Of a stretch of 64,000 nt of DNA, positions 44,937-60,131 are shown in pieces. How positions within the stretch are numbered: position 1 is the stretch's first letter; the number at the start of each line of letters is the position of its first letter. A program made the position numbers and the translations under genes. The DNA lies in the NCBI GenBank assembly GCA_965223415.1, contig OZ245002.1, forward strand, positions 5,536,001-5,600,000, read 5' to 3'. Under the pieces are notes generated by a model that saw only the letters and a program-made list of their open reading frames with translations, was not told the origin of the DNA and ran no database searches. The DNA is from Myxococcota bacterium (GTDB taxonomy: Bacteria > Myxococcota_A > UBA9160 > UBA6930).

Positions 44937-44941
44937 GAACT

Positions 44942-44977
44942 GACTAGTCAGTCTAGTCGTCTTTCGCGGATCGTCAA
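44942..44977 (-). promoter_or_regulatory. tetR promoter with overlapping palindromic operator
   Basis: TTGACG-16 bp-TAGACT; palindrome GACTAG-N5-CTAGTC (44942-44958) covers the -10 box. Confidence 0.6.
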
Positions 44978-45053
44978 GGGGCGGGAAACCTGGCACCGGA
45001 GCGGACGACGCACCGTATGGCGGGCAAGGCGTGGGCAGGTGAAGCGGCAGTCG

Positions 45054-45081
45054 GGCTGCCATAACCACTTTTATGAATGAC
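45054..45081. other. Degenerate dif-like site (left border of the cassette)
   Basis: GGCTGCCATAA-CCACTT-TTATGAATGAC: CATAA-N6-TTATG core at the drop in GC content. Confidence 0.4.
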
Positions 45082-45192
45082 CAACAAGGGGCCAAGTTAG
45101 CCCCGAGGGGACCAGTCGAGACGACCATATGTCCCGCGTTTTAGGTCAGGATTCGGGGAGCTCGTGAGGCTCGAGCGAGCTGCTGGCGGTCG

Positions 45193-45228
45193 AAACCCGG
45201 GACGTAAGGTCCACTATGTCCCGGGTTT
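45193..45228. other. Tyrosine-recombinase-like core site
   Basis: AAACCCGGGACGTAA-GGTCCA-CTATGTCCCGGGTTT: 15-bp arms (2 mismatches) around a 6-bp spacer; related half-site TATGTCCCGCGTTTT near 45128-45142. Confidence 0.45.
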
Positions 45229-45297
45229 TCGCTTCGCGAGAGCCCTTTCGCACAAGGCAAGAGGCCGAGGCGAGGAGCTGCCGTCTCCCGTTTCGAG

Positions 45298-45807
45298 CTA
45301 GCCCAAAGAGGAGTCGGTGTGGGACGTGAGCTGCTGCCGGTAAACCTCTGCCCGCTCGTATGCGAAGTGGTCCACGAAAAGAGCCGTGAGCCCCAGCATC
45401 ACCATCGTCAAGCCAGCCGCCTTGGCGTTCGGCCCGGCAGCAATGAAGAAGAGCACGAGTCCCGCTACCACCAGGAAGGCTCCCGATGGGAACGTGACGC
45501 GGAAGATGGCGTCGAAACTCTCAACTCGTTCAACTTCGGCGCGAACGAAAGCTTCAGCGTCCACCGCGATTGCCTCCTGGAACCGGGTGATGCGCTGGTT
45601 GTTGTTCCAGATTCCGTATGCGGAGGCTGAGGTTGTGAGCACGGAAAACAAGAGGAACGGGAGCACCAAGGACCTGGCGTTCGGCGTTTCACCGAATGTC
45701 GCGAACGCAGCCGCCGCGGTGCCGACGATGACGCCAGCGGTTCCTATTGCGAACGCCTCCGTGATTTCGCCTCGGCACCAGTCCAGGGAGTACTGGACGA
45801 TGCTCAC
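45298..45807 (-). CDS. Hypothetical 4-TM membrane protein (cassette cargo)
   Basis: GTG start lies within the left copy of the IS3 duplication; four hydrophobic segments. Confidence 0.75.
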   Translation of the reverse strand: MSIVQYSLDWCRGEITEAFAIGTAGVIVGTAAAAFATFGETPNARSLVLPFLLFSVLTTSASAYGIWNNNQRITRFQEAIAVDAEAFVRAEVERVESFDAIFRVTFPSGAFLVVAGLVLFFIAAGPNAKAAGLTMVMLGLTALFVDHFAYERAEVYRQQLTSHTDSSLG

Positions 45808-45875
45808 GTTACCGCGTCCCCCTTTGCTGGGTTGACACATTCGGGTTAGGAAATCCCCTTCGCAGAGAGGGGAAG

Positions 45876-46286
45876 ATGAGCAGGAAGCAGAGCAGGAGTC
45901 GAAGGGGTTCGGGGTCGCCGAGGGGCGGAGCCGAGCGGAGCGAGGCGGAGGCCCTCGGCGACCCCGTGCGCGGCCGGCCGGGTCGTCGTAGCACCGAGGA
46001 GCGGACAGAGGCGGTGCTGGAGCTCTTGAGCGGCAAGGCCAGCGTGGACCAGATTGCCCGGCGTTTCGGCGTTCGCGCGAGCACGGTGGAGGGCTGGCGG
46101 GAGCAGGCGATGGAGGGCATCGGCCAGGCGCTGCGCCAGGGCTCGGGCAAGTCGGCCCGGGAGCTGCAGCTGGAGAAGGAGCTCGGGAGCCTGGAGAAGG
46201 CCTTCACGCACCTGGCGATCAAGCACGAGCTGGTGGATCGGGCGCTCAAGGACCGCCCTTCACGGCCCGGGAGGTCTCGACGATGA
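45876..46286 (+). CDS. IS3-family OrfA (HTH)
   Basis: EAVLELLSG..SVDQIARRFGV..STVEGWR plus a zipper-like tail. Confidence 0.85.
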   Translation: MSRKQSRSRRGSGSPRGGAERSEAEALGDPVRGRPGRRSTEERTEAVLELLSGKASVDQIARRFGVRASTVEGWREQAMEGIGQALRQGSGKSARELQLEKELGSLEKAFTHLAIKHELVDRALKDRPSRPGRSRR

Positions 46287-47170
46287 GCCTCACCACGTCC
46301 CGGGGTGAGGCCAGGGTGGGGCAGCTGTGCGAGGCCTTCGGGATCTCGCGCCAGGCGTACTACACGGCGCGCAAGGCGCCGTCCTCGGCGCAGGAGCCGG
46401 AAGCCCTCCGGCGTCCGGAGCGCCGGGGGCCGTGGGTCTCGGATGCGACGCTGATCGAGAAGATCAAGGACGTGGTGGCCGAGTTTCCGGCCTGGGGCGT
46501 TCGCAAGGTCTGGGCGTACCTGCGGCGGCTGGGGACGGTCGTGTCGCGCAAGCGGGTCTGGAAGCGGATGAAGGCCTTGGGGCTTTGCCTGCCGCCGATC
46601 TCGGAGCGGGCCCAGCCGCTCCAGGGAGGGCATGTGGCGGTGCCGGAATCGAACCGGCGCTGGGCCACGGACCTGACGACGACCTGGACGGCCCAGGAGG
46701 GCACCGTAGCCTTGGTCCCGGTCATCGACTGCGGCGACCGGGTGGTGTTCGACGTCGAGGTGACGAAGTCCCAGGAGTCGCCCGCCGTCCTGGCGCCGGT
46801 CGAACGGAGCCTCGAAGAGGCCTTCGGGTCGCGCGCGTCGGTGCCCGAGGGGCTGGAGCTTCGCAGCGACCACGGGCCGCAGTACACGGGCTCGGACTGC
46901 GAGGCCCTCTGCAAGGCCTGGCGCCTCGACCACACGTTCGCGCCCGTGGGCCGACCCACGGGCAACGCCGTCGCCGAGCGCTTCATCCAGACGCTGAAGG
47001 TGGAGCTGATCTGGACGCAAGACTGGCAGACCGTCGCCGAGCTTCGCGAGGCCGTGAAGCAGTGGCTGCACGTCTACAACCACGTCCGGCCTCACCAAGC
47101 TCTCGGCTGGATGACGCCTGCCGAGAAACGAGCCGAGAACCTCGGTATCGAGTTCAACCAGGCCGCTTGA
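46283..47170 (+). CDS. IS3-family OrfB DDE transposase
   Basis: WATDLT, IDC, RSDHGPQY, NAVAERF..TLK, YNHVRPHQALG; -1 frame with ATGA overlap. Confidence 0.92.
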   Translation: MSLTTSRGEARVGQLCEAFGISRQAYYTARKAPSSAQEPEALRRPERRGPWVSDATLIEKIKDVVAEFPAWGVRKVWAYLRRLGTVVSRKRVWKRMKALGLCLPPISERAQPLQGGHVAVPESNRRWATDLTTTWTAQEGTVALVPVIDCGDRVVFDVEVTKSQESPAVLAPVERSLEEAFGSRASVPEGLELRSDHGPQYTGSDCEALCKAWRLDHTFAPVGRPTGNAVAERFIQTLKVELIWTQDWQTVAELREAVKQWLHVYNHVRPHQALGWMTPAEKRAENLGIEFNQAA

Positions 47171-47242
47171 GGCCGCAACCAGGAGGGGATTCCCAGCTCA
47201 GATCGTGTCAACCGCCAGGGGGGACAGGGCACTGGACGATGC

Positions 47243-47443
47243 TCACGTGGCAAGACCTACGGCGCTCTCACTGATGCGCATGAGCCTCGAAACGGTTTCG
47301 GAATCGCGCGTCTCTGGGTTCGGGGGCCGCACAGTATCCTCGTAGACATACTTGCCCGAAACGCCCTCGAATGAAGAGGAGACCGCGAGTCTGGCGATTC
47401 GGTCTGCGCCCACCTCCGCTGGAGACGCGAGGAACCGCATCAT
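47243..47443 (-). pseudogene. SDR oxidoreductase, 3' fragment
   Basis: Joins in frame (GRP-MMRFLAS) to 52282 after removing the IS21 and one ATCAT. Confidence 0.85.
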
Positions 47444-47551
47444 CCTCGGTGGACACCCAAAACCGGCCATAGAAGGACGTCTGAAAAGCGGCCATAGGGG
47501 CTGACGCCCAGGACGTTGACGACGGCGAGGGACCTGCGATCCCCCGCCGCC

Positions 47552-47772
47552 ATGGCGAACCTTCTGGGCAACGAGAAACGCGAGCAGATTCTGGCACTTG
47601 GCCGCCTCGGCTGGTCGCTTCGGCGGATCGAGGAGGCGACGGGCGTGCGCCGGGAGACGGCGAGCCGTTACCTCCGGGCCGCGGGGATCGCGGTGCGATC
47701 TCCTGGTCGCTGGGGGCACGGGGCCCCAAACCCGGCCATAGAGGCGTCCACCGACTCGAAGGCCCCGGCAAA
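47552..47772 (+). pseudogene. istA: Outer istA, 5' fragment (HTH)
   Basis: MANLLGNEKREQILALGRLGWSLRRIEEATGVRRET; rejoins 50081 in frame. Confidence 0.87.
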
Positions 47773-47870
47773 TGTCGCAGGACGTGATATTCGAGGGCTA
47801 AGAGGACACGTAGATTTGCGCACCTCCTGTTGAGCCGCTGCGCGGCACGTTCCCCGTGAGGGAGGGGGGC

Positions 47871-49142
47871 GTGGGGCAGCGGCGACTGAGGCAGGAGGAA
47901 GTGATGACGATCGAAGTGCTGCACGAGCGGGGGTGCTCGAACCGGGAGATCGCCCGCCAGCTGGGGATCCGGGAGAGCGCGGTGCGCTACCGGCTGAAGC
48001 GGCTGGCGGAGGGGGCGCGAGACGGCCGGAGCGGGAAGCCCTTCCTGGCCGAGGCGGTCCACGAGGTGATCGCGGAGTGGCTGGAGGCGAGCTCGGGAGG
48101 CCGTGGCGTGAACCTGCAGGAGCTTCACGAGTTCCTGGTGGAGGAGCACGGGTACACGGGGAGCTCCAAGAGCGTGCAGCGGTACGTGCGGGCCCGGTTC
48201 CCGAGACCGAAGGTGCGGAGCCGGCGTCGGGTGGAGACACCGCCCGGGGCGCAGGGTCAGGTGGACTGGGGCGAGTTTCCGGGCGTGCGGATCGGGGGCC
48301 AGGAGGTGGACCTGCATGCCTTCCACCTGGTGCTCTCGCACTCGCGGCGAGAAGCGGTGGTGTGGTCGGAGCGGGCGGACACGCTGGCGTGGCTGGACGT
48401 GCACAACCGGGCCTTCGAGCGGCTGGGCGGGGTGCCGGCGGTGCTGCGGGTCGACAACGTGAAGACAGCGGTGGCGAAGGGGGCGGGGCCATGGGGGACG
48501 GTGAACCCGGCTTACGCGAGCTATGCCGGGGCCCTTCGCTTCCACGTGGACGCCACCCGTCCCCGCCAGCCGCAGGAGAAGGGGAAGGTGGAGCGTCGGA
48601 TCCTGGGGCACCGGCGGGGCTTCGATCCGCGTCGGCGGGAGCACGAGAGCCTGGAGTCGCTGCAAGCGTGGACGGACGGCCAGGTGGCGCGCTCGAGCCA
48701 CCGGCGGCAGTGCCCGGCGACGGGCACGACGGTCTTCCAGGCGTGGGAGGCGGAGAAGCCCCATCTCGGGGCCCTGCCCGAGCGGCTTCCCGAGCCCTTC
48801 GACCTGGCCGTGATGCGACGTGTCGGGCGCGACGCCACGGTGCGCTTCGAGGGGCGTACCTACAGCGTCCCCTTCCGCTTCGTCGAGCAGAGCGTCGAGG
48901 TGCGCGGCTGCGCCCGGCAGGTGCAGGTCTGGGCCGAGGGCTCGGTGGTGGCCGCGCACCCGCGCCACACGCGAAGCCGCCTGCTGCTGGACCCGAGCCA
49001 CTACGAGGGGCCGAGCACGGAGGGGGTGGAGGCGCCCGTACCGCTCGGGCGCATGGGTCGACGCCTCCAGGAGCTGTGGGCGATGGAGCCGGAGCAGCGG
49101 CCGATCGACCTCTATGCCGATCTGGCGGAGGTGGCGCGATGA
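47871..49142 (+). CDS. istA: IS21 transposase IstA (inner)
   Basis: ETPPGAQGQVDWG, LSHSR, DNVKTAV, KGKVER, YSVP; start uncertain. Confidence 0.92.
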   Translation: MGQRRLRQEEVMTIEVLHERGCSNREIARQLGIRESAVRYRLKRLAEGARDGRSGKPFLAEAVHEVIAEWLEASSGGRGVNLQELHEFLVEEHGYTGSSKSVQRYVRARFPRPKVRSRRRVETPPGAQGQVDWGEFPGVRIGGQEVDLHAFHLVLSHSRREAVVWSERADTLAWLDVHNRAFERLGGVPAVLRVDNVKTAVAKGAGPWGTVNPAYASYAGALRFHVDATRPRQPQEKGKVERRILGHRRGFDPRRREHESLESLQAWTDGQVARSSHRRQCPATGTTVFQAWEAEKPHLGALPERLPEPFDLAVMRRVGRDATVRFEGRTYSVPFRFVEQSVEVRGCARQVQVWAEGSVVAAHPRHTRSRLLLDPSHYEGPSTEGVEAPVPLGRMGRRLQELWAMEPEQRPIDLYADLAEVAR

Positions 49143-49939
49143 CGGCGGGAAACCCGGTGCCCAAGAAGGGCGGCAAGGTGGATCTCGACCCGACCCGCGA
49201 GCGGCTCGTGCGCCTCGGCCTCCATCACGCGGCCGAGCACATCGGCGAGGAGCTGGCCCGAGCGACCAAGGACGACCTCGTGCCCCACCGCTTCCTCGAC
49301 CTGCTGCTCGAGGCCGAGCTGCAGCACCGCGAGGAGCGGAGGATGAAGACCTCGCTCCGTCTCTCGGGCCTTCCCACGGGGCAGACCCTCGGCAACTTCG
49401 ACTTCGCCTTCCAGCCGAGTGTGGAGCGGAGCCGGATCGAGACGCTGGGCACCTGCGCGTGGATCCGGGCCAAGGAGAGTCTGCTGATCCAGGGTCCGCC
49501 GGGAGTGGGCAAGACCCACCTGGCGGTGGCCCTGGGGGTGCGGGCCGTGGAGAACGGCTTCTCCGTGGCCTTCCATCGCCTCGAGGACCTGCTGGCGGCC
49601 CTCAAGCGCGACGCCGAGATCAGCCCGCAACGGCTGCGGCGGCGCAAGCACATGAACGTGGCGCTCCTCGTCATCGACGAGGTCGGCTTCGAGCCCATGA
49701 CGCGCCAGGAGGCGAGCCTCTTCTTCCGGCTCGTCTCCTACCGCTATGGGAGGGGCTCGATCCTGATCACCACGAACAAGGGCATCGCCGACTGGCCCGA
49801 GGTGCTGGCGGGCGACGAGGTGCTGGCCACCGCCATCCTCGATCGCCTCCTCCACCACAGCCAGGTGCTCAACATCTCGGGGCGGAGCTACCGGCTCCGC
49901 GAGCTCGAGCAGGCCGCGGGGCAAAGCGCCCAGCGTTGA
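49139..49939 (+). CDS. istB: IS21 helper ATPase IstB (inner)
   Basis: FDFAFQP, GPPGVGKTHLA, VIDEVG, AILDRLLHH, SYRL. Confidence 0.94.
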   Translation: MTAGNPVPKKGGKVDLDPTRERLVRLGLHHAAEHIGEELARATKDDLVPHRFLDLLLEAELQHREERRMKTSLRLSGLPTGQTLGNFDFAFQPSVERSRIETLGTCAWIRAKESLLIQGPPGVGKTHLAVALGVRAVENGFSVAFHRLEDLLAALKRDAEISPQRLRRRKHMNVALLVIDEVGFEPMTRQEASLFFRLVSYRYGRGSILITTNKGIADWPEVLAGDEVLATAILDRLLHHSQVLNISGRSYRLRELEQAAGQSAQR

Positions 49940-50080
49940 GGCCCCAGAGGGCGGCCTGACGGCCGTGCTCTCCTTCGGAGAGCGGAAGAGAAGAAGGAAG
50001 AACCGAACATCAACCCAGGGGGGTGCGCAAAACTAGCCGTCCTCTTAGCGCGCAAGAGATGACGTCCCTCGACAAGCAAA

Positions 50081-51449
50081 AGCGGCCAAAGAGGCGTCCA
50101 CCGATCCGGCCTGGCCGCCGATGCCGGGCCGGAGCCCCCAGGCCAGCGCCTGCGAGCCCTACCGCGAGTGGATCGAGGCGGGCGTGCGCCAGGGCCGGAC
50201 GGCGATGGCGATCTGGCAGGACCTGGTCGATGACCACGGCTTCGCCTTCAGCTATGCGAGTGTGAAGCGCTTCGTGGCGAAGCAGCGAGCCGCGGCGCCG
50301 CGCGAGGCGCACCCGGTGATCGAGACGGCACCGGGAGAAGAGGGCCAGGTCGACTACGGCGACGGGCCGATGGTGCGGCATCCCGGGTCGGGGAAGTACC
50401 GGCGCACGAGGCTGTTCGTCTTCACCCTGGGCTACAGCCGCAAGTGCGTTCGGCTGCTCGTGTGGAAGTCGAGCAGCCAGGTCTGGTCGGAGCTGCACGA
50501 GAAGGCCTTCCGCCGGCTGGGCGGTGCACCGCGCACCGTCGTCCTCGACAACCTCAAGGAGGGCGTTCTCAAGCCCGACGTCTACGACCCCGCGCTCAAC
50601 CCCCTCTACCGCGATGTGCTCGCCCACTACGGCGTGACGGCGCTTCCGTGCCGGGTGCGCCACCCCGATCGCAAGGGGAAGGTCGAGTCCGGGGTGCGCC
50701 ACGCGCAGCAGAAGGTCCGCGGGATGCGCTTCGAGTCGCTCGAGCAGGCCCAGGCCTACCTCGACCGCTGGGAGCGCCGGTGGGCCGACACCCGCATCCA
50801 CGGCACGACCAAGCGCCAGGTGGCGGCGATGTACGAAGAGGAGAAGCCGCACCTGCTCGGGCTTCCCATCGAGCCCTTCCGCTACTACCAGCACGGCGAG
50901 CGCACGGTGCACCTCGACGGGGCCATCGAGGTGGAGGGGGCCTACTACCACGCGCCGCCGGGCTGGCTGGGGCGGCGGGTGGCCGTCCAATGGGACGGGC
51001 TGCGGGTGCGGATGCTCGATCTGCAGACGGGGGAGCTGCTGCGCGAGCACGTCCGCCAGAGGCGGGGGCGCCGCAGGATGCGGGAGGAGGACCGCCCGAA
51101 GCGGACGCCGGCCACGACCCTCCAGCTGCTCGCGCGGGCCCGGCGGGCCGGCGCCCACGTGGGCGAGGTGTGTGAGGCGATCCATCGCCTGGACGGCGAG
51201 CCCGGGGTGCGCCGCATCCTGGGCGTGCTCTCCCTGTGCAAGCGCCACGGCATCCCTCGCGTCGACGATGCCTGCGCCACCGCCCTGGCCCTCGAGCTGC
51301 CCACCTACGCGTTCGTCAAGCGCTACCTGGAGCGTCAGCCCGAGCTGCCGCTCTCGCTCAAGCAGGTGGACCCGCTCATCCGCCAGCTCACCCACTACCG
51401 CGATCTCATCGATCGCCGCACCGAGGAGACCTCTCGTGAATCTGACTGA
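50081..51449 (+). pseudogene. istA: Outer istA, 3' fragment (DDE core)
   Basis: ETAPGEEGQVDYG, LGYSR, DNLKEGV, KGKVE. Confidence 0.88.
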
Positions 51450-52197
51450 ACTCGATCCCGCACTGCGCAAGCTCCGGCTCTCGGGCATGGCCGAGCATCT
51501 GGAGATGCGGCTCCTCGAAGCCCAGAAGGGCGAGTGGGCGGCCATCGACCTGCTCTCGGCGCTCGTCCAGGACGAGCTCGAGCGCCGGCAGGACCGACTG
51601 CTGGCCCGGCGCATCAAGCAGGCCCGCTTCCGCGACGCCAACCGGACCCTCAACGGCTTCGACTTCCGCTTCAATACGAAGATCGATCGCGCCCTGGTCT
51701 TCGAGCTCGCCACGGGCCGCTTCCTCGAGCAAGCCGAGGACGCTGTCTTCCTCGGCCCGCCGGGCACGGGCAAGAGCCATCTCGCCCAGGCGATCGGACT
51801 CGCCGTCATCCACCAGGGCCATCGCGTCGCCTACCGCGAGGTCCACGTCCTCCTCGAGGAACTCGCTGATGCGACCCTCGACGGCACCCGCAAGGAGTAC
51901 CTGGCCGAGATCGCGAGAGTGCCGCTGCTCATCCTCGACGACCTCGGCATGCGCAAGCTCCCCACCACGGCCGCCGAGGACCTCCTCGAGCTGATCATGC
52001 GCCGCTACGAGCGCACCAGCACCCTCGTCACCTCGAACCGACCCGTCGACGACTGGGGCCGGCTCCTCGGCGACACGGCAGCCGTCACCGCCATGCTCGA
52101 CCGCCTCCTCCACCACGGCCACCTGCTCAAGTGCGGACCCCGCAGCTGGCGCACCAAGAAGACCACCGCCTTGCCGAAGGAGGCCCCGGCGCGGTAG
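51436..52197 (+). CDS. istB: IS21 helper ATPase IstB (outer)
   Basis: FDFRFN, GPPGTGKSHLA, ILDDLG, AMLDRLLHH, SWR. Confidence 0.93.
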   Translation: MNLTELDPALRKLRLSGMAEHLEMRLLEAQKGEWAAIDLLSALVQDELERRQDRLLARRIKQARFRDANRTLNGFDFRFNTKIDRALVFELATGRFLEQAEDAVFLGPPGTGKSHLAQAIGLAVIHQGHRVAYREVHVLLEELADATLDGTRKEYLAEIARVPLLILDDLGMRKLPTTAAEDLLELIMRRYERTSTLVTSNRPVDDWGRLLGDTAAVTAMLDRLLHHGHLLKCGPRSWRTKKTTALPKEAPAR

Positions 52198-52276
52198 AAC
52201 CCCTCTGTCCTGGGCGCGGCCCTTTGGCCGCCTTTGAGACGTCCACCTTTGGCCGGTTTTCAGACGTCCACCGAGG

Positions 52277-52923
52277 ATCATTGGGCGCCCAATGGCTTCG
52301 AAGCCTCGAAGGTCCCGAAGAATGTTCGACTTGATGAACCCCGGGTTCAGAGAGTTTGCCGATACGCCAGTCCCTTCGAGCTGTCGCGCGAGGTCGATGG
52401 TGAACATGTTCAGTGCGAGTTTTGCGCGCGCATAGGCTCTCGCGGGGCTGTATCCGTGCTCGAGCTGGAGGTCCTGAAAGTTGATGTGGCCGACGGCTTC
52501 CGTTGCGGACGACACGTTGACGATGCGCGCGGGCGCCGAGGACACGAGGCGGTCGAGGAGAAGATTCGTCAAGAGAAACGGTCCGAGGTAGTTGACAGCC
52601 CAATTGCGCTCGAAGCCATCGTCAGTCACGGCTCTTTCCCGAAAGTTCGCTCCGGCGCAGTTGACGAGGACGTCGATTCGCTTGGCGTAGCTCAAGACTC
52701 GTTCAGCGCACCGCCTAACGCTCTCCATCGAGAGCAAGTCGCATTGCTCGAAGGAGATGGCCCCGTCGCCAGCCGACGCGGCAGCTTCTGAAATCACTGC
52801 CTTCCCTTTGGTTTCGTCGCGGCCCAACAGGATGACGCTTGCGCCCATTCGGTAGAGAGTTCCGACGGCGACGCGGCCCATCCCGTCGGTGCCTCCGACG
52901 AAGACCACAGTCTTCCCGCCTAG
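52277..52923 (-). pseudogene. SDR oxidoreductase, central fragment
   Basis: VGGTDGMG, NCAG, VNYLGPFLLT, YARAK. Confidence 0.9.
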
Positions 52924-54214
52924 CAGGCTGCGGAAAAACCCCGTGCGACGGGTCGAATCGGTTGGTACAGGCATACCGGGGGGATGGAGATGCGCGGAAC
53001 CGATCGAACGCAGTCCACGATGTTCAGCTACGTGTCGCCGGAGGCGCGTGTCCCCGCCGATCATCCACTGCGCGTGACGCGGGAGATGACGAATCGCGCC
53101 CTGGTCCGGCTGGACGGGAGGTTGCGGAAGCTGTACTCGCGGACGGGTCGGCCGTCGATTCCGCCCGAGCACCTGTTGCGGGCCCTGCTGCTGCAGGTGC
53201 TCTACTCGGTGCGAAGCGAGCGGATGCTGATGGAGCAGCTCGAGTACAACCTGCTGTTCCGCTGGTTCGTGGGGCTCGAGATGGACGACCGGGTCTGGGA
53301 CGTGACGGTGTTCACGAAGAATCGGGATCGGTTGCTTCGGGGAGAGATCGCGGAGGGGTTCTTTCAGGCCGTGTTGGCGGAGGCCCGCGAGGAGGGGCTT
53401 CTGTCGGACGAGCACTTCACGGTGGACGGCACGCTGATCGAGGCATGGGCGGGGCAGAAGAGCTTTCGGCCGAAGGACGAGGACCGGGGCGGCCGCGGGG
53501 GTGGACGGAAGGCGACGGAGCGGGACTTCCACGGTGAGCGTAGGAAGAACGACACGCACGCCTCGACGACGGACCCGGAGTCCCGGCTCTACCGCAAGGG
53601 GAAGGGGAAGGAAGCGAAGCTGTGCTTCATGGGCCACGTGGTGACGGAGAACCGGCATGGCCTGGTGGTGGCGGCCAAGACGACGCTGGCCACGGGCACG
53701 GCGGAGCGCGAGGCCTCGGTGGCGATGGTGAAGCGGGTGCCACGCGGACGGCGATCGACGTTGGGCGGAGACAAGGGCTACGACACGGTGTCGCATGTCG
53801 AAGAGCTTCGAGAGCTGGGCGTGACCCCGCACGTTGCGCAGAACGACAAGGGCCGCCGCAGCGCGATCGATGATCGAACGACGACGCACGTGGGCTACGA
53901 GATCAGCCAGCGCAAACGCAAGGCGATCGAGCAGGTCTTCGGCTGGGGGAAGACGGTAGGCCCGATTCGCAAGGTGAAGCATCGCGGCAAGGAGCGGGTG
54001 GGCTGGATGTTCACGTTCACCCAGGCGGCCTACAACCTTGTGAGGATGAGGAACCTGCTATGCCCCACGTAGCTTGTCGGGTCGAGTGGAGGGCCCCGTT
54101 GGCAGCGAGCCGGGCGTCAACCGGCGGCAAGGCCTCGATTCCGCGCTCCTTTCCTAGCCAAAGCGCCTCCAAGGCACCGTTCTCTGCGTACCATCGGCGT
54201 TCTTCCGCAGCCTG
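52924..54214 (+). mobile_element. IS5-family element
   Basis: IRs CAGGCTGCGGAA/TTCCGCAGCCTG; CTAG duplicated at 52920-52923 and 54215-54218. Confidence 0.9.
52990..54072 (+). CDS. IS5-family transposase
   Basis: VPADHPLR, GRPSIPPE, VDGTLIEAWA, GDKGYD, RK.IEQVFGW.K. Confidence 0.93.
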   Translation: MRGTDRTQSTMFSYVSPEARVPADHPLRVTREMTNRALVRLDGRLRKLYSRTGRPSIPPEHLLRALLLQVLYSVRSERMLMEQLEYNLLFRWFVGLEMDDRVWDVTVFTKNRDRLLRGEIAEGFFQAVLAEAREEGLLSDEHFTVDGTLIEAWAGQKSFRPKDEDRGGRGGGRKATERDFHGERRKNDTHASTTDPESRLYRKGKGKEAKLCFMGHVVTENRHGLVVAAKTTLATGTAEREASVAMVKRVPRGRRSTLGGDKGYDTVSHVEELRELGVTPHVAQNDKGRRSAIDDRTTTHVGYEISQRKRKAIEQVFGWGKTVGPIRKVKHRGKERVGWMFTFTQAAYNLVRMRNLLCPT

Positions 54215-54329
54215 CTAGGTCCTTGTCCGCCTCGGGAATGGCGTGTCGAGGGTCGGGCGTCCTCCTTTGTGGAAGAAGTGACGTGAGTAGGAGACGGAGG
54301 GTTCCAGGTAGGTTCAATGCAGTCCTCAC
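54215..54329 (-). pseudogene. SDR oxidoreductase, 5' fragment
   Basis: ..EADKDL joins GGKTVVFVGG in frame; reconstructed protein is 317 aa (start uncertain). Confidence 0.75.
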
Positions 54330-54340
54330 AAGATGGCCGC

Positions 54341-54386
54341 GCGGAGGAAATCCTCCGCATTGTTAGCAGCGGAGAATTTCTTCCGC
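54341..54386. promoter_or_regulatory. Two TetR-type operator palindromes between divergent SDR and tetR
   Basis: GCGGAGGA-AA-TCCTCCGC (54341-54358) and GCGGAGAATTTCTTCCGC (54369-54386). Confidence 0.65.
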
Positions 54387-54417
54387 CAGTGGCCTCTCGC
54401 CGCTAGTCTCCGGCTTC

Positions 54418-54867
54418 ATGACCAAGCCCGAAGCCGACTCCATCGACGACAGAATCCGGTTCGCCGCTCTCCGACTGTTCAATGAAAGGGGATATGGAGC
54501 GGCAACCGTCGAAGACATCGCGCGCGTGGCGGGCGTCGGTGTCGGCACGATTTACAGGCGATGGCCGGACAAGCCTGCGCTCGCCAACGAGCTCTACACC
54601 CTCGTGCTTGAGCGAGCCGCCTCCTACGATGCCCGCCAAGGCAAAGGGCGGGGAAAGAAGGGGCGCTTCCTCGGCCTCCTGCAGTCGTTCGCCGCTTTCG
54701 CGAAGGACGAGCCAGAAATGATGCTCTTCCTCGTCGCGCAGCCGCACAACGCGTATCTGGACCCGAAGAACCGACGAAGGCAGGCGGCGAAAGACGCGGA
54801 AACCTTGCAACTGGTGAGCGAGACCGGAGTCACTGCTTCTCCCGAGTTCGCCGCTGCAATGGTCCTA
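54418..54867 (+). pseudogene. TetR-family regulator, 5' part (interrupted by IS630)
   Basis: AALRLFNERGY..TVEDIARVAGVGVGTIYRRW. Confidence 0.87.
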
Positions 54868-56079
54868 GTGTCCTGTTTCGGAAAAAAGTACGCAAAATAG
54901 TGCGAACTCCCAACGTGCAGGGGGCATCTTACCGGCATCACGTTGGGGGGACGTATGGCGAATCGTGGCCGGCCCAAGACGCCGATTGTGCTGACGGATG
55001 CGGAGCGAGAAGAGCTCCAGACGCACGCCAGAAGGCGGAAGAGCGCGCATCAGTTGGCCTACCGCTCGCGCATTGTATTGCTCGCAGAGCAGGGGCTGAC
55101 GAATGGGGAAATCGCGGAACGCGTAGGCAAGCGACGAGAGACCGTCGGGATCTGGCGCAAGCGCTTCGTCGAAAAGCGGATCGCTGGGCTCTACGACGAG
55201 CCCAAGCCGGGAGCGCCCCGGACGGTGACCGACGAGCAGGTCGATGAGGTCGTGCGCTTGACGCTAGAGGAAACGCCCACGGGAGCGACGCACTGGTCCG
55301 TTCGCCTGATGGCGAAGCGGGTAGGCCTCCCGACGACGACGGTTCATCGCATCTGGCGAGCATTCAGCCTCCAGCCGCACCGAGTCGAGCGCTTCCGGCT
55401 CTCCAACGATCCCCATTTTGTGGACAAGGTGGTGGATATCGTCGGCCTGTACATGTCTCCGCCGGCGAACGCGGTCGTCCTCTGCGTCGACGAGAAATCG
55501 CAGATCCAAGCGCTGGAACGGAACCAGCCTGTCTTGCCGATGCAACCGGGCCGGGCGGAGCAGCGCACACACGGATACCTACGCCATGGCACGACGACAC
55601 TCTTTGCCGCACTCAACATCGCAACGGGCGAAGTGATCGGATCCCTCCATCGCCGGCACCGCACGGAGGAGTTCCTGAAGTTCCTCAGGACGATCGACGA
55701 CAACGTACCCGCCGAACTCGACATCCATCTCGTGCTCGACAACTACACCACGCACAAGACGAAGCGAACTCGGAGCTGGCTCGCGCGCCACCCTCGTTTC
55801 CACGTGCACTTCACCCCGACGTACAGCTCATGGCTGAATCAGGTCGAGCGGTTCTTTGCACTCATCACCGAGCGTTGCATCCGTCGCGGCGTGCATCGCA
55901 GCACGAGGGCGCTCGAGAACGACATCCGGAGCTTCCTGAAGACGACGAACGACGATCCGAGACCCTTCGTCTGGACCAAGACCGCGGATCAGATCCTCGC
56001 GAGTGTGCGGCGCTACTGTGGTCGCGTCCTCGACGTCCACTCCGATTCTAATCGAGTGGTTTCTTCTGGAACAGGACAC
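54868..56079 (+). mobile_element. IS630-family element
   Basis: IRs GTGTCCTGTT/AACAGGACAC; TA duplicated within CTAG. Confidence 0.9.
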
Positions 56080-56082
56080 TAG
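54955..56082 (+). CDS. IS630-family transposase
   Basis: [39 protein letters not shown]. Confidence 0.94.
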
Positions 56083-56168
56083 GAACGATTGCTCAGTGTG
56101 TTCGGACTGGCGCCGATTTCGAAGCCGAGGACTTAGCGGAGCGGCTGTGGAGAGCGCTCTCTACGTAA
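56082..56168 (+). pseudogene. TetR-family regulator, 3' part
   Basis: [28 protein letters not shown], in frame with the 5' part (178 aa reconstructed). Confidence 0.8.
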
Positions 56169-56226
56169 AGAGCAGCCGCAGAAGGGTCAGCCCTGAGCTG
56201 CGGTTCTCACTTGACATTATGCGGCT

Positions 56227-57244
56227 CCTGCCTATCGGCTTCGCTCAGCTACCAGTCGGCGATACGGGAACGGCTCGCCCTGGACAGCGCGGTTGAGGAC
56301 GAAGCCGAAGAGCTCGCCTTCACGCCAACGCCGGTCGAAGCGATAGACGAACTCCGCGAGGTAGTGAGGGAGGTGCTTGCCGCTGACTCCGTGGAAGGTG
56401 CCCCGCAGCCAGGTCTTGAGGTTGCCGAAGACCCGGTGCACCCAGGGCAGGATCTCGGCCGACCGGTCGGGGTCCAATCCTTGGACCAGCCGTTCGTGCT
56501 GGACGCCGACCTTGGAGAGGCGGCGGTAGCCTTGGAAGCCATCGGTTCGCACCGTGGCATCGGTGGCGTCGATGACGCCGCGCACGAAGGGGCCGAGGTC
56601 GTGTTCGAAGGTGAGCCCCTCGATGACGGCAAGTCGAGCGCGACCTGCGCTGTGCTTCCGCTGCTCGACGGCTCCCGCCACGAGCGTCTTGCCCACGAGC
56701 ATGCGTCCACCCAGCAGGCCGCGTTCCGTTCCCCCCACGTAGCTCTCATCCGCCTCGACGAGGCCCGTGAGCCGATCCTCGGGGCGCGGCCCGAGGGCGG
56801 AGCGCAGCTTGTGGAGCATCGTCCAGGCTGTCTCATAGCTCCCGATCCCCGTGTCCCGTTGCAGCTGGAGCGCCGAGATTCCCTTCTTGTGGCGAGCGAG
56901 AAAGAAGATGGCCCAGAACCAGGTGAGCAACGGAACCCGGGTCGCATGGAAGATCGTCCCGGCGGTCACCGAGCACTGGTACCGGCAGCCTCGACACTGC
57001 TCGAGGCGCCGGGTCGAGATCCAACAGCTCTCTCGAGAGTCGCACCGAGGGCAAACGAAGCCCCGTGGCCACCGTACGTTTCGCAGCGCCTCCCAGCACG
57101 TTTCCTCGTCCGGGAATGTGGCCTGGAACTCCTGAAGCGTCTTCGGAAACCTCATCGCTCGGCCCTCCTCGGCTCAATCCAAGAGGAAGGTCCGATCTCT
57201 CCGTGACAGGGCCGGTCACGAGCTGAGCGAAGCCGATAGGCAGG
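56227..57244 (-). mobile_element. IS1595-family element
   Basis: Perfect 24-bp IR CCTGCCTATCGGCTTCGCTCAGCT; 8-bp duplication ATGCGGCT at 56219-56226 and 57245-57252. Confidence 0.93.
56232..57155 (-). CDS. IS1595-family transposase
   Basis: Zn ribbon CPRC..CRGC, TAGTIF, VEADESYVGG, TDG, HGVS.KHL..YLAEFVYRF. Confidence 0.94.
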   Translation of the reverse strand: MRFPKTLQEFQATFPDEETCWEALRNVRWPRGFVCPRCDSRESCWISTRRLEQCRGCRYQCSVTAGTIFHATRVPLLTWFWAIFFLARHKKGISALQLQRDTGIGSYETAWTMLHKLRSALGPRPEDRLTGLVEADESYVGGTERGLLGGRMLVGKTLVAGAVEQRKHSAGRARLAVIEGLTFEHDLGPFVRGVIDATDATVRTDGFQGYRRLSKVGVQHERLVQGLDPDRSAEILPWVHRVFGNLKTWLRGTFHGVSGKHLPHYLAEFVYRFDRRWREGELFGFVLNRAVQGEPFPYRRLVAERSR

Positions 57245-57311
57245 ATGCGGCTTATCGGACACAAACCGTTGAAATCAATGGCTTTATCAATGTCCGAGTG
57301 CGGCTCGAGCT

Positions 57312-60131
57312 TCAGGGTGACCGGGGTGCACTCCCCGGCGCCCGCCTACGCCAACCGCCCTCCTCCCACCGCAGCTCTTCCAACGGCCAGTGCCCGGGAT
57401 CCAGCTCCAGGGTCCGCACGCTCACCTTGCCCTGCAGGTCCACCGTGCGCAGGCGGACCGAGTCGCCGTCGCCCTTCCCCGCCACGGCCGCCAGGAAGGC
57501 GTCCAGGCCCTCGACGGGGCGGCCGTCGACGGCCACGATGCGGCGGGTGGCGTGGATGCGGTAGCGGTCGGCGGGGGATCCGCGCCAGCGGCCGGCCACG
57601 TAGACGCCGGTGCGCGGAAGGCCCCGCTGCCAGGCGAGCTCCTCCGGCGGGTCCTGCAGCAGGGCGCCGGCCCAGAGCAGCGCGCGACGGGTGCCCTGGG
57701 TCGATCGCGCGGTGGTGGGCACCTGGAGCTCCAGCCGTCGTCCCAGGCGCAGGATCTCGAGATCGACGGCCTCGGCGCGCGCGGCGCGCTCGAGCTCCCG
57801 GAAGCGGGTCACCGGCTCGCCGCCGGCGGCCAGGATGAGATCGCCGGCGCGCAGCAGCTTCGCAGCCGGCGTGCCGTGGGCGACGCGCGCGACTCCGAGC
57901 ACCCGCCGCGAAGCCGGATCGTGCTCGCCGAGCCGGCGGGCGTCCTCTTCGGAGAGACCGAGGGCGCGGGCCCGCGCGAGCGGTGCCTGCAGCAGCTCGA
58001 CGCCGAGGCTCCGCCAGGTGAAGGGCTCGCCTTCACGAAGCGGCACGGTGAGATCGAGCAGGTGGTGGCTGGGGAGCCCGGCGAAGAAGGAGCTGGTCTC
58101 CCCCCGCCGCTCCGTGGAGAACGAAGCCCAGAGCGCGAGCACGCGGCCGAAGCGATCGACGAGCACGCCGCCGACGCTGCCCAGGGGCTCGGCCACCGCA
58201 ACCAGCTCCGAGTTCGTCTCCCGGAAGCGCGGGGCCCGCGGCAGCGGAACGGTCGGCGGGTCGACCCGCGAGACCTGGGTGCGAACCGAGAGCACCTGCT
58301 GGCGGTTCGTCACGGCGACGAGCGTCACGTCGTCGCCGGCCTGGAGGGCTGTGTCCCGCAGGCGCGCGCTGCGCACCGGCGTCTCGCCGAGCAGGGCCGG
58401 GTCGTAACGGACCACGGCCAGGTTGTGGGCCGGGTGGAAGCCGACGACGCGGCCGGGCACCTCGACGGAGCCGCCGAAGGTGATGCGCACGTCGCCCAGG
58501 GTCACCGGGACCGTATCTCGATCGACGACGACGAAGCCGCGCTCGGCGTCCACCACGAGGCCGGCACCGGTGAAGGCGCGGCCCTGGACGCCGTCCACCG
58601 CGTAGGGGACGTCGAAGCTCACGACCGCGAGGGAGCGCGCCGCCACCCGGGAGGCGTAGCTGCCGTTCGCCTCCAGGCTGGCCGTCGCCGGTCTCAGCGA
58701 CTCGGGCTCCGGCGGCAGCGCCGAGGCCTTGCATGGGTAGCGCCCCGCCCTGTCGTCCCGCTGGCAGTGCCGCATCGAAAACCACTTCCGGTCCATCGTG
58801 ACGACGCCCAGGTGGGGCGCACCCGCAGCGGCCGGGGAGAAGTAGCGGACCTGGAAGCGCTCCCCGTCCGCCACGGCCGCCAGCTGCTGCTCCAGGCTCT
58901 CGAGGTCGCGGACGGGAACGCCGTCGACGTCGGTCAGCACCGAGCGGGCGGGGATGCCACCCCGCGCGAAGACGTAGCCCGTCGAGGCCAGGTACACGCC
59001 CCGTCCCGGCAGCCCGTAGCCCCGCGCGAGCTGGTACGAGAGCGGATGCAGCACCGCGCCGCCCACTTCGAGGAAGGCGTCCGGCGTGACGGCGTGCAGG
59101 TCCCGCACCGTCAGCGCGAGCTCGAGGGATGCCCCACCCCGCTCCACCTGGAGTCGCACGGACCGCCCTACCGCGGCGTCGAGCACCGCCTCCAGGGACA
59201 CGAAGTCGGCGAGGGGACGGCCCTCGAGGCCGACGAGCACGTCACCGGGCTCGAGCACGCCGTCGGCGGGGCCGCCAGGAACGATCTCCCGGACCACCAG
59301 GAGGCCGGTGCCGCCGGGGAACTCCCGGCGCAGGCGCGCCTCGGTCTCCGGTGCCAGGCCCAGCCGGTGCAGCTCGTCGTAGGGCTCGTGGACGAAGACC
59401 GCCTGCAGCGTTCCGCGGGCGACCGGCTCACCCCGCCGGAGCGCGGCCAGGGCCCGCACGACCCGATCCAGCGGGAGGAAGAAGCTCGACGCCGCGCCGC
59501 GGCTGCCACCGGCGTTCAGGGCGACGACCCGGCCATCCCGGTCGACCACCGGAGAGCCGGAGGAGCCGCCGGAGCTGCTGGACGCCGCCTGGTAGTAGAA
59601 GGTGTTGAAGTCGTTGTAGCGGCCGCGGCCGTAGTCCGGCGCCCGGCGGTCGAGGCGCGCCAGGGTGCCGTCGAGGATCGAGAGCTTCTCGCCGGCATCG
59701 TTGCCGATCACCCGGATCTCGGTGCCGACCCGCGCGGCCTCCGGCGCCAGGCGGAGCTCGGCCAGCTCCATGAAACGGACGTCCGCAGGATCGAAGCGGA
59801 AGAAGCCGAAATCGTGGACCGGGTCCCGGTAAACCGGCCACACCCGCACCTCTTCGTGGTTCAGGAAGATCGCGTCCGCGGTGACCGGGCCGGAATGCAC
59901 CACGTGCCGGTTCGTCAGGATGATCCCGCGCTCGGCGTCGACCACGAAGCCCGTCGCCACCGAGAAGGAGGCCGTCTCCGTGTCGAAGGAGCGGCTCGCC
60001 GCCACCCGGAGGGCGACGACGCTGCGCGCCGCGCGCTCGACGGTCGCCTCCCAACGGGCGTCCTCGGCGGCCGTCGTCGCGGCAGCGACGAGCAGGAACG
60101 AGGCGCCCAGGATCGCAGCGCGTCGGCTCAG
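57312..60131 (-). CDS. Nma111/Deg7-like HtrA serine protease (two trypsin-like domains + PDZ domains)
   Basis: LTNRHVV, YRDPVHDFG, GNDAGEKLSIL, NDFNTFYYQAAS..GGSSGSPV; signal peptide reached only from a CTG at 60131. Confidence 0.85.
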   Translation of the reverse strand: MSRRAAILGASFLLVAAATTAAEDARWEATVERAARSVVALRVAASRSFDTETASFSVATGFVVDAERGIILTNRHVVHSGPVTADAIFLNHEEVRVWPVYRDPVHDFGFFRFDPADVRFMELAELRLAPEAARVGTEIRVIGNDAGEKLSILDGTLARLDRRAPDYGRGRYNDFNTFYYQAASSSSGGSSGSPVVDRDGRVVALNAGGSRGAASSFFLPLDRVVRALAALRRGEPVARGTLQAVFVHEPYDELHRLGLAPETEARLRREFPGGTGLLVVREIVPGGPADGVLEPGDVLVGLEGRPLADFVSLEAVLDAAVGRSVRLQVERGGASLELALTVRDLHAVTPDAFLEVGGAVLHPLSYQLARGYGLPGRGVYLASTGYVFARGGIPARSVLTDVDGVPVRDLESLEQQLAAVADGERFQVRYFSPAAAGAPHLGVVTMDRKWFSMRHCQRDDRAGRYPCKASALPPEPESLRPATASLEANGSYASRVAARSLAVVSFDVPYAVDGVQGRAFTGAGLVVDAERGFVVVDRDTVPVTLGDVRITFGGSVEVPGRVVGFHPAHNLAVVRYDPALLGETPVRSARLRDTALQAGDDVTLVAVTNRQQVLSVRTQVSRVDPPTVPLPRAPRFRETNSELVAVAEPLGSVGGVLVDRFGRVLALWASFSTERRGETSSFFAGLPSHHLLDLTVPLREGEPFTWRSLGVELLQAPLARARALGLSEEDARRLGEHDPASRRVLGVARVAHGTPAAKLLRAGDLILAAGGEPVTRFRELERAARAEAVDLEILRLGRRLELQVPTTARSTQGTRRALLWAGALLQDPPEELAWQRGLPRTGVYVAGRWRGSPADRYRIHATRRIVAVDGRPVEGLDAFLAAVAGKGDGDSVRLRTVDLQGKVSVRTLELDPGHWPLEELRWEEGGWRRRAPGSAPRSP

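Follow-up and report, generated by a model that had tools for sequence, protein, structure and literature searches.

To our knowledge, dif hunting by insertion sequences has been described for the IS1202 family only, whose members land beside their sites. ISAjo2-type members of this family in Acinetobacter were termed 'dif/pdif site hunters' (Harmer, Pong and Hall, 2023, PMC10132070); these are 1.5-kb elements with a TnsB-like transposase of 441-457 aa and they insert on the outer side of the XerC arm, at a distance of 5 bp and in a fixed orientation, generating a 5-bp duplication and leaving the site intact; aiming at dif through XerC was proposed for them (PMC10132070). Secondary dif-like sites with non-chromosomal spacers, located on accessory DNA, are also a feature of dif modules and IMEX, such as the pdif modules of Acinetobacter and the CTX and TLC elements of Vibrio, which rely on two sites or on integration at dif.

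Other insertion sequences, namely IS1397 and ISKpn1 of the IS3 family and the REP-hunting elements of the IS110 family, aim at repeated extragenic palindromes. Members of the IS1595 family are typically ~1 kb long, encode one transposase with a zinc ribbon and a DDE domain, end in inverted repeats and generate an 8-bp duplication (ISfinder description). A literature search of sources that were in part accessible returned no report of target specificity in the IS1595 family, whether for dif or for LexA boxes.

The element described here is an IS1595-family insertion sequence within a dif-like site of a Myxococcota genome, found in a stretch of 64,000 nucleotides (hereafter, the window). Its nearest precedent is the IS1202 family, with which it shares a DDE transposase and a position at Xer sites of the dif type (for IS1202, secondary as well as chromosomal ones). 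However, it cannot be classed as an IS1202-type hunter, as the transposase (a 307-aa zinc-ribbon protein), the position (within the spacer), the duplication (8 bp) and the orientation (either one) all differ from what is described there, and as its insertion would destroy the site. It matches typical IS1595 elements in size, transposase domains, repeats and duplication, and differs from them in its strict choice of target. Similar to the REP hunters, it is inserted in the middle of a short intergenic palindrome, its relatives mostly hitting a ~90-bp intergenic repeat, but it belongs to another family, its palindrome is a dif-like core, and the window site shares the core of that repeat only. 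In contrast to the dif modules and IMEX, the window holds a single site, 769 kb away from dif, for which no partner was found.

An IS1595 element in the centre of a dif-like site

The genome of the window (G000) is a single contig of 5.83 Mb with 71% G+C. The transposase of the element (Table 1) matches the Pfam families DDE_Tnp_IS1595 (PF12762, 2.8e-29) and Zn_ribbon_IS1595 (PF12760, 4.6e-13, residues 15-60), as well as the NCBIfam model transpos_IS1595 (NF033547), with 194.7 bits against a cut-off of 75. These matches bear out the family assignment made in the original prediction, and the element displays the whole set of IS1595 features, i.e., the DDE_Tnp_IS1595 domain, the zinc ribbon, a length of ~1 kb, one ORF, inverted repeats and an 8-bp duplication. 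No second copy was detected by blastn in the whole 5.83-Mb genome, where the element matches itself only. Its own terminal repeats contain CCGATAGG and carry the word TATCGG (CCGATA on the other strand) 6 bp from each tip, and each junction between the element and its target after insertion reads CCGATA-N14-TATCGG.

Removal of the element and of one repeat copy by script restores an empty site that reads GTGTCCGATAA-GCCGCA-TAATGTCAAGT on the minus strand. This reconstructed site is 28 bp long, has an 11-6-11 layout and is split by the element in its centre, the 8-bp duplication corresponding to the 6-bp spacer plus one base from each arm. The original prediction had placed the insertion exactly in the centre of a dif-like XerCD site and had derived the duplication from the spacer and one base per arm; coordinates, repeats and reconstructed site all agree with it. 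The two arms share 19 of 22 positions (10/11 and 9/11) with those of the chromosomal dif, whereas the spacer is GC-rich in the window site and AT-rich in dif. The window site is dif-like, with a likeness beyond chance, and, judged from its sequence, a putative Xer substrate. A hairpin beside the XerD-type arm in the window was not significant (z -1.6).

Table 1. Positions of the features discussed in the text; coordinates refer to the window unless marked as genome positions of G000.
Feature	Position	Strand	Remarks
Genome-specific insert, ~12.3 kb	~44985-57300		tblastx synteny against L099, L100 and L101; dif-like site at right edge
TetR gene	ends near 44940		
IS3-type element	45876-47170		inside insert
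IS21-type element	47856-49939		inside insert; ~20 copies in genome
Second IS21-type element	50121-52197		inside insert
IS5/DDE_Tnp_1-type element	52984-54072		inside insert
tetR-like fragment	54418-54900		inside insert
IS630-type element	54943-56082		inside insert
Outside flank, ACTTGACATT	56209-56218		
XerD-type arm, TAATGTCAAGT on minus strand	56209-56219	-	9/11 against XerD-side arm of the genome's own dif
Target-site duplication copy 1, ATGCGGCT, 8 bp	56219-56226		direct repeat
IS1595-family insertion sequence, 1018 bp	56227-57244	-	read from sequence
23-bp terminal inverted repeat, transposase-stop end, CCTGCCTATCGGCTTCGCTCAGC	56227-56249		perfect reverse complement of 57222-57244
Transposase ORF, 307 aa	56232-57155	-	N-terminal zinc ribbon and DDE domain
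23-bp terminal inverted repeat, transposase-start end	57222-57244		exact reverse complement of 56227-56249
Target-site duplication copy 2, ATGCGGCT, 8 bp	57245-57252		direct repeat
XerC-type arm, GTGTCCGATAA on minus strand	57252-57262	-	10/11 against XerC-side arm of the genome's own dif
Outside flank, TATCGGACAC	57253-57262		
Trypsin/PDZ protease gene	57312-60005		
~90-bp repeat copy	~3,033,254-3,033,359 (genome)		
~90-bp repeat copy	4,182,894-4,182,999 (genome)		
~90-bp repeat copy	4,185,020-4,185,109 (genome)		
Chromosomal dif, ATGTCCGATAA GATAGA TTATGTAAAGT	4,823,244-4,823,271 (genome)		unique, intact

The chromosomal dif

Both strands of the 5.83-Mb genome were scanned with the two arms of the window site. 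Besides the two halves split by the element, the best match (19/22) starts at position 4,823,244, the next best reaching 17/22, and this site is where the cumulative GC skew peaks (4.81 Mb at 10-kb steps). A pattern search across 31 genomes of the same family returned a match in 28 of them, nearly all with exactly one site of 0-1 mismatches, and almost none when the pattern was reversed as a control. The spacer of these sites is AT-rich and conserved, of the GATAKA type (GATAGA, GATATA and close variants). Since it is unique per genome and carries this shared AT-rich spacer, the site at 4,823,244 is the dif of the family. Weaker extra sites with GC-rich spacers turned up in several family genomes in the same search.

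The possibility raised in the original prediction that the window site was the chromosomal dif is therefore rejected: the true dif is intact at 4.823 Mb, with a spacer type conserved across the family, and the comparison with the skew-derived terminus, also foreseen there, places it at the cumulative-skew maximum. The window site is a secondary kind of site with a GC-rich spacer, 769 kb from dif. As for the recombinases, the genome encodes a XerD-like protein (328 bits against a cut-off of 329.6) and a XerC-like protein (300 bits against a cut-off of 335), the latter with a counterpart in 41 of the 41 genomes of the order searched.

The cumulative GC skew of G000 is irregular, with dnaA at 2.83 Mb, next to a local minimum, and dif at 4.82 Mb, which gives replication arms of ~2.0 and ~3.8 Mb, and with a stretch of reversed skew at ~1.3-2.8 Mb; this may reflect large rearrangements mediated by insertion sequences or a fault in the assembly. 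IstB-like (IS21-type) matches occur within 1-2.5 kb of dif in this genome.

Accessory DNA around the window site

The window site lies at the edge of DNA that is peculiar to this genome. In three relatives of the same genus (L099, L100 and L101), the trypsin/PDZ protease gene has its 3' end ~50-110 bp from the TetR gene; as the protease and TetR regions are joined directly there, the ~12.3 kb between them in the window are specific to the window genome. This insert consists mostly of insertion sequences, six in number and of five or six families, the IS1595 element included, and its unique non-IS stretches are limited to 44,937-45,806, ~54,224-54,864 and ~190 bp that hold the dif-like site. 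None of five same-genus genomes has a dif-like site (at least 14/22) at the orthologous place. Thus, with the empty site absent in five relatives and the insert absent in three, the site arrived with accessory DNA.

The original prediction had further supposed that inactivation of the site locks a cassette in. This idea found no footing, as no partner dif-like site (at least 14/22) was found in the 12.3-kb insert, its left border included, most of which is taken up by the six insertion sequences; a cassette bounded by two dif-like sites, as in a dif module, therefore has no support. The combination of an ISCR-like Y2 transposase and a tyrosine recombinase that is found at 4.18 Mb (see below) is absent from the window, the Y2 gene being single-copy.

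Relatives repeatedly split dif-like sites

Relatives of the transposase were collected from genome contigs (65 loci), from 401 genomes of the phylum (28 with a match) and from metagenome contigs (223 relatives, 80 kept). Flanks were read at loci whose transposase is at least 50% identical, the ends of the element being located by its conserved tip. The close relatives (50-94% identity) come from Myxococcota. Both flanks are visible at 22 loci, six of which show a perfect 8/8 duplication, and in five of these six (the window, L002, L108, L117 and L075) the element lies inside the spacer of an 11-6-11 site, with a XerC-type arm on one flank and a XerD-type arm on the other, each matching the dif arms of G000 at 7-10 of 11 positions. 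The transposases of these loci are 78% (L002), 94% (L108), 69% (L117) and 51% (L075) identical to that of the window, L075 coming from another class of the phylum. At the sixth locus (L073, 56% identity) the element sits 25 bp beside an intact dif-like core. Two further loci represent spacer insertions, one with a 6/8 duplication (L116) and one with a repeat copy that is cut at the same position (L225).

Among the 64 distinct flanks, 12 match a dif arm at 8 or more of 11 positions with the expected spacing, the G000 genome predicting 0.07 such matches, and 23 do so at 7 or more of 11, against 0.6 expected; the corresponding binomial P (<1e-20) is overstated, as the loci are related and the null was drawn from one genome, yet the effect is still very large. 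An AT-rich spacer of the chromosomal type was found in none of the 64 flanks. A clean duplication is missing from the other 16 of 22 paired loci, several of which have one flank in common with another locus (e.g., L117 and L118); we infer that they are mostly chimeric assemblies across a 1-kb repeat or products of recombination between copies.

This clade of Myxococcota elements thus aims at dif-like sites. The original prediction had conceded that a single event could be chance, and, with one copy of the element in the genome, G000 alone could not exclude an untargeted insertion into a dif-like sequence. However, the empty sites reconstructed for the homologues are enriched in dif-like sites and do not amount to unrelated targets, and, as sites of this kind are split again and again by independent relatives from other genomes and metagenomes, a chance event is scarcely credible.

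Some metagenome and genome loci show additional peculiarities. At L127, L134 and L110 (metagenome, 65-70% identity) identical inverted flanks extend for at least 47-70 bp beyond the usual tip of the element, their inner part reading CCGTAGC, a degenerate CCGATAAGC arm word; either terminal repeats of greater length or an artefact of assembly may account for them. At L069 (G313, a contig of 1531 bp, 70% identity) an intact dif-like core and a 17-bp linker are found, inverted, directly outside both ends, a layout like that of a dif module with the insertion sequence as cargo.

The target and a ~90-bp intergenic repeat

A position table of the flanks delimits what these elements select. Of the 64 flanks, 63 extend far enough for tabulation, and each of these has A or T at position -9, in DNA of ~70% G+C; ATA dominates at positions -11 to -9 and C at -13, and the duplication tends to start with A and to end with T. 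These frequencies place the target in the inner, symmetric portion of both arms, the cuts being separated by 8 bp: the elements insert between inverted half-sites, ..C(C/G)GATA - A-N6-T - TAT(G/C).., that represent the palindromic portions, on the inner side, of the XerC- and XerD-type arms. Both orientations of the element relative to the arms occur (L075 and L001 are opposite to the window), which fits a symmetric read-out.

Most relatives hit one particular context for this core, a ~90-bp intergenic repeat (31 copies aligned) with the core consensus GAgGTCCGAtAA-6-..TGA.CAAcT, which is flanked by GCGGATAGG..AAGCGG upstream, on the XerC side, and by a CCCCGGGG hairpin and GACCGTAGGCGG downstream. 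The repeat is present in 37 of 121 genomes of the order, its copies being intergenic, often 1.4-8 kb apart and in one orientation, amid ordinary genes (P450, desaturase, acyl-CoA dehydrogenase, KatG/Fur). So many dif-like cores per chromosome are unusual. The window site is not a member of this repeat family, as it lacks the conserved flanks and matches the repeat profile (nhmmer, 31 copies) over the 27-nt core only (E 5e-4). Since this core is all that the window site and the repeat family share, the core is what is recognised. More distant relatives use a second hot spot within the ~90-bp repeat, GGATA-(8 bp)-AAGC (L072, L073, L213 and L221).

The composition of the repeat allows another explanation, namely that the targets are no Xer substrates at all, and that the cores and the GGATAGG words are transposase-binding words of a repeat related to the ends of the element, their likeness to dif being coincidental or convergent. 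The ~90-bp repeat indeed contains three words that resemble the right end of the element (GCGGATAGG and CTAGCGAGACCGTAGGCGG at its two ends, GGTCCGATAA in the core), the terminal repeats of the window element include CCGATAGG as well, and some relatives (L069) carry the intact core and linker directly outside both ends. However, the sites of the window and L002 have only the core in common with the repeat family, and the cores match the unique dif of the family in both arms, the XerD-type arm having no counterpart in the ends of the element. This reading of the targets is thus improbable.

In G000, a tyrosine recombinase gene (525 aa) adjoins an ISCR/IS91-like Y2 transposase gene (561 aa) at 4,178,910-4,182,754; the Y2 protein matches the NCBIfam model of ISCR clade Ia with 1.9e-117, under its cut-off. 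Downstream of the Y2 gene, at ~140 bp, there is a dif-core repeat, which is followed after another 2.1 kb by a second copy, beyond a DinB-family and a urate-oxidase-N-like ORF, and then by a PIN/MazE pair. A Y2 gene is found beside the repeat in the same relative orientation at L217 and L228 as well.

A sister clade and LexA-box-like palindromes

A sister clade of the transposase, with ~40% identity, occurs in Beta- and Gammaproteobacteria (L012-L036, L064 and L144-L181). Its terminal repeats, AAGGGGTATCC.CTTAGCTCCA, differ from those of the window element. Where the duplication is at least 7/8, CTGT-(8 bp)-ACAG is exact around the insertion in 17 of 25 loci, the N8 being exactly duplicated, and the other loci are mostly off by one or two bases or by one letter. 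The motif CTGT-N8-ACAG is the LexA box of Beta- and Gammaproteobacteria. Some of the split sites are located 30-90 bp upstream of SOS-type genes, i.e., those for a Peptidase_S24/UmuD-like protein (L023), SRAP (L179), a PHP-domain protein (L018) and YafO (L012). The sister clade thus splits LexA-box-like palindromes with the same geometry as the window clade, which suggests that the target preference travels with the transposase lineage.

Recognition of the target

The favoured reading is that a dimer of the transposase itself recognises the half-sites, and we give this direct reading about an even chance. The element moved by the ordinary DDE route, with staggered cuts 8 bp apart giving rise to the 8-bp duplication, and its insertion into the central region of a secondary dif-like site left two half-sites 1 kb apart, which would destroy whatever recombination function the site may have had. 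Chromosome dimer resolution is untouched, because the true dif is intact elsewhere. Direct reading is favoured mainly because the sister clade combines the same geometry with other half-sites, and it would be consistent with the presence of the same CCGATA/TATCGG word in the terminal repeats of the window element. Mimicry of the ends of the element is no general rule, though, as the repeats of the sister clade have no obvious copy of CTGT. Moreover, the half-sites coincide with a recombinase-binding site, and the bound protein could equally be the signal.

Accordingly, aiming could be guided by a protein, as the original prediction had supposed for Xer: XerC/XerD or another tyrosine recombinase sitting on the core would recruit or position the transposase, the cuts falling 1 bp outside each Xer cleavage position. 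The targets have the full dif architecture, with asymmetric XerC- and XerD-type arms that go beyond a short palindrome, the genome encodes XerD-like and XerC-like proteins, the latter found in all 41 genomes of the order that were searched, and the second hot spot (L072, L073, L213 and L221) is likewise located 8 bp away from a word, GGATA, that resembles the XerC arm. The IS1202 family offers a precedent, with the proposal that XerC directs the element to dif (PMC10132070). In addition, the target of the sister clade would be the operator of another dimeric host protein, some sites preceding genes for Peptidase_S24, SRAP, PHP and YafO. On the other hand, such guidance would require different host partners in the two clades, which is costlier than drift of a direct read-out. 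The AT-rich chromosomal spacer is found in 0/64 flanks, although its absence could result from selection against insertions into the real dif. Finally, both orientations of the element occur, whereas IS1202-type elements keep one (PMC10132070). Recruitment by XerC/XerD or another bound recombinase appears less likely than direct reading, albeit worth serious consideration.

A broader version of protein guidance would extend to both clades: an IS1595 branch led by host dimers, XerC/XerD on dif-like cores in Myxococcota and LexA on SOS boxes in Beta- and Gammaproteobacteria, would insert exactly between the protomers, with duplication of the spacer. This version is unlikely; if true, these IS1595 elements would be natural 'operator hunters', open to retargeting, that inactivate recombination sites or relieve SOS genes of repression.

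Implications for transposition and Xer recombination

Insertion sequences with precise targets are rare and useful, and those described here would represent site choice by a one-protein DDE transposase, with neither helper proteins nor guide RNA. The parallel targeting of LexA-box-like palindromes in the sister clade suggests that one and the same scaffold allows its specificity to be re-tuned. A second family of insertion sequences, unrelated and of much smaller size, that lands inside the dif spacer and thereby kills the site would offer a compact system in which to study target capture, and the finding is of interest for work on transposition and on Xer recombination alike. In the cell, a spacer-splitting IS1595 element would be a natural antagonist of Xer-dependent mobile DNA.
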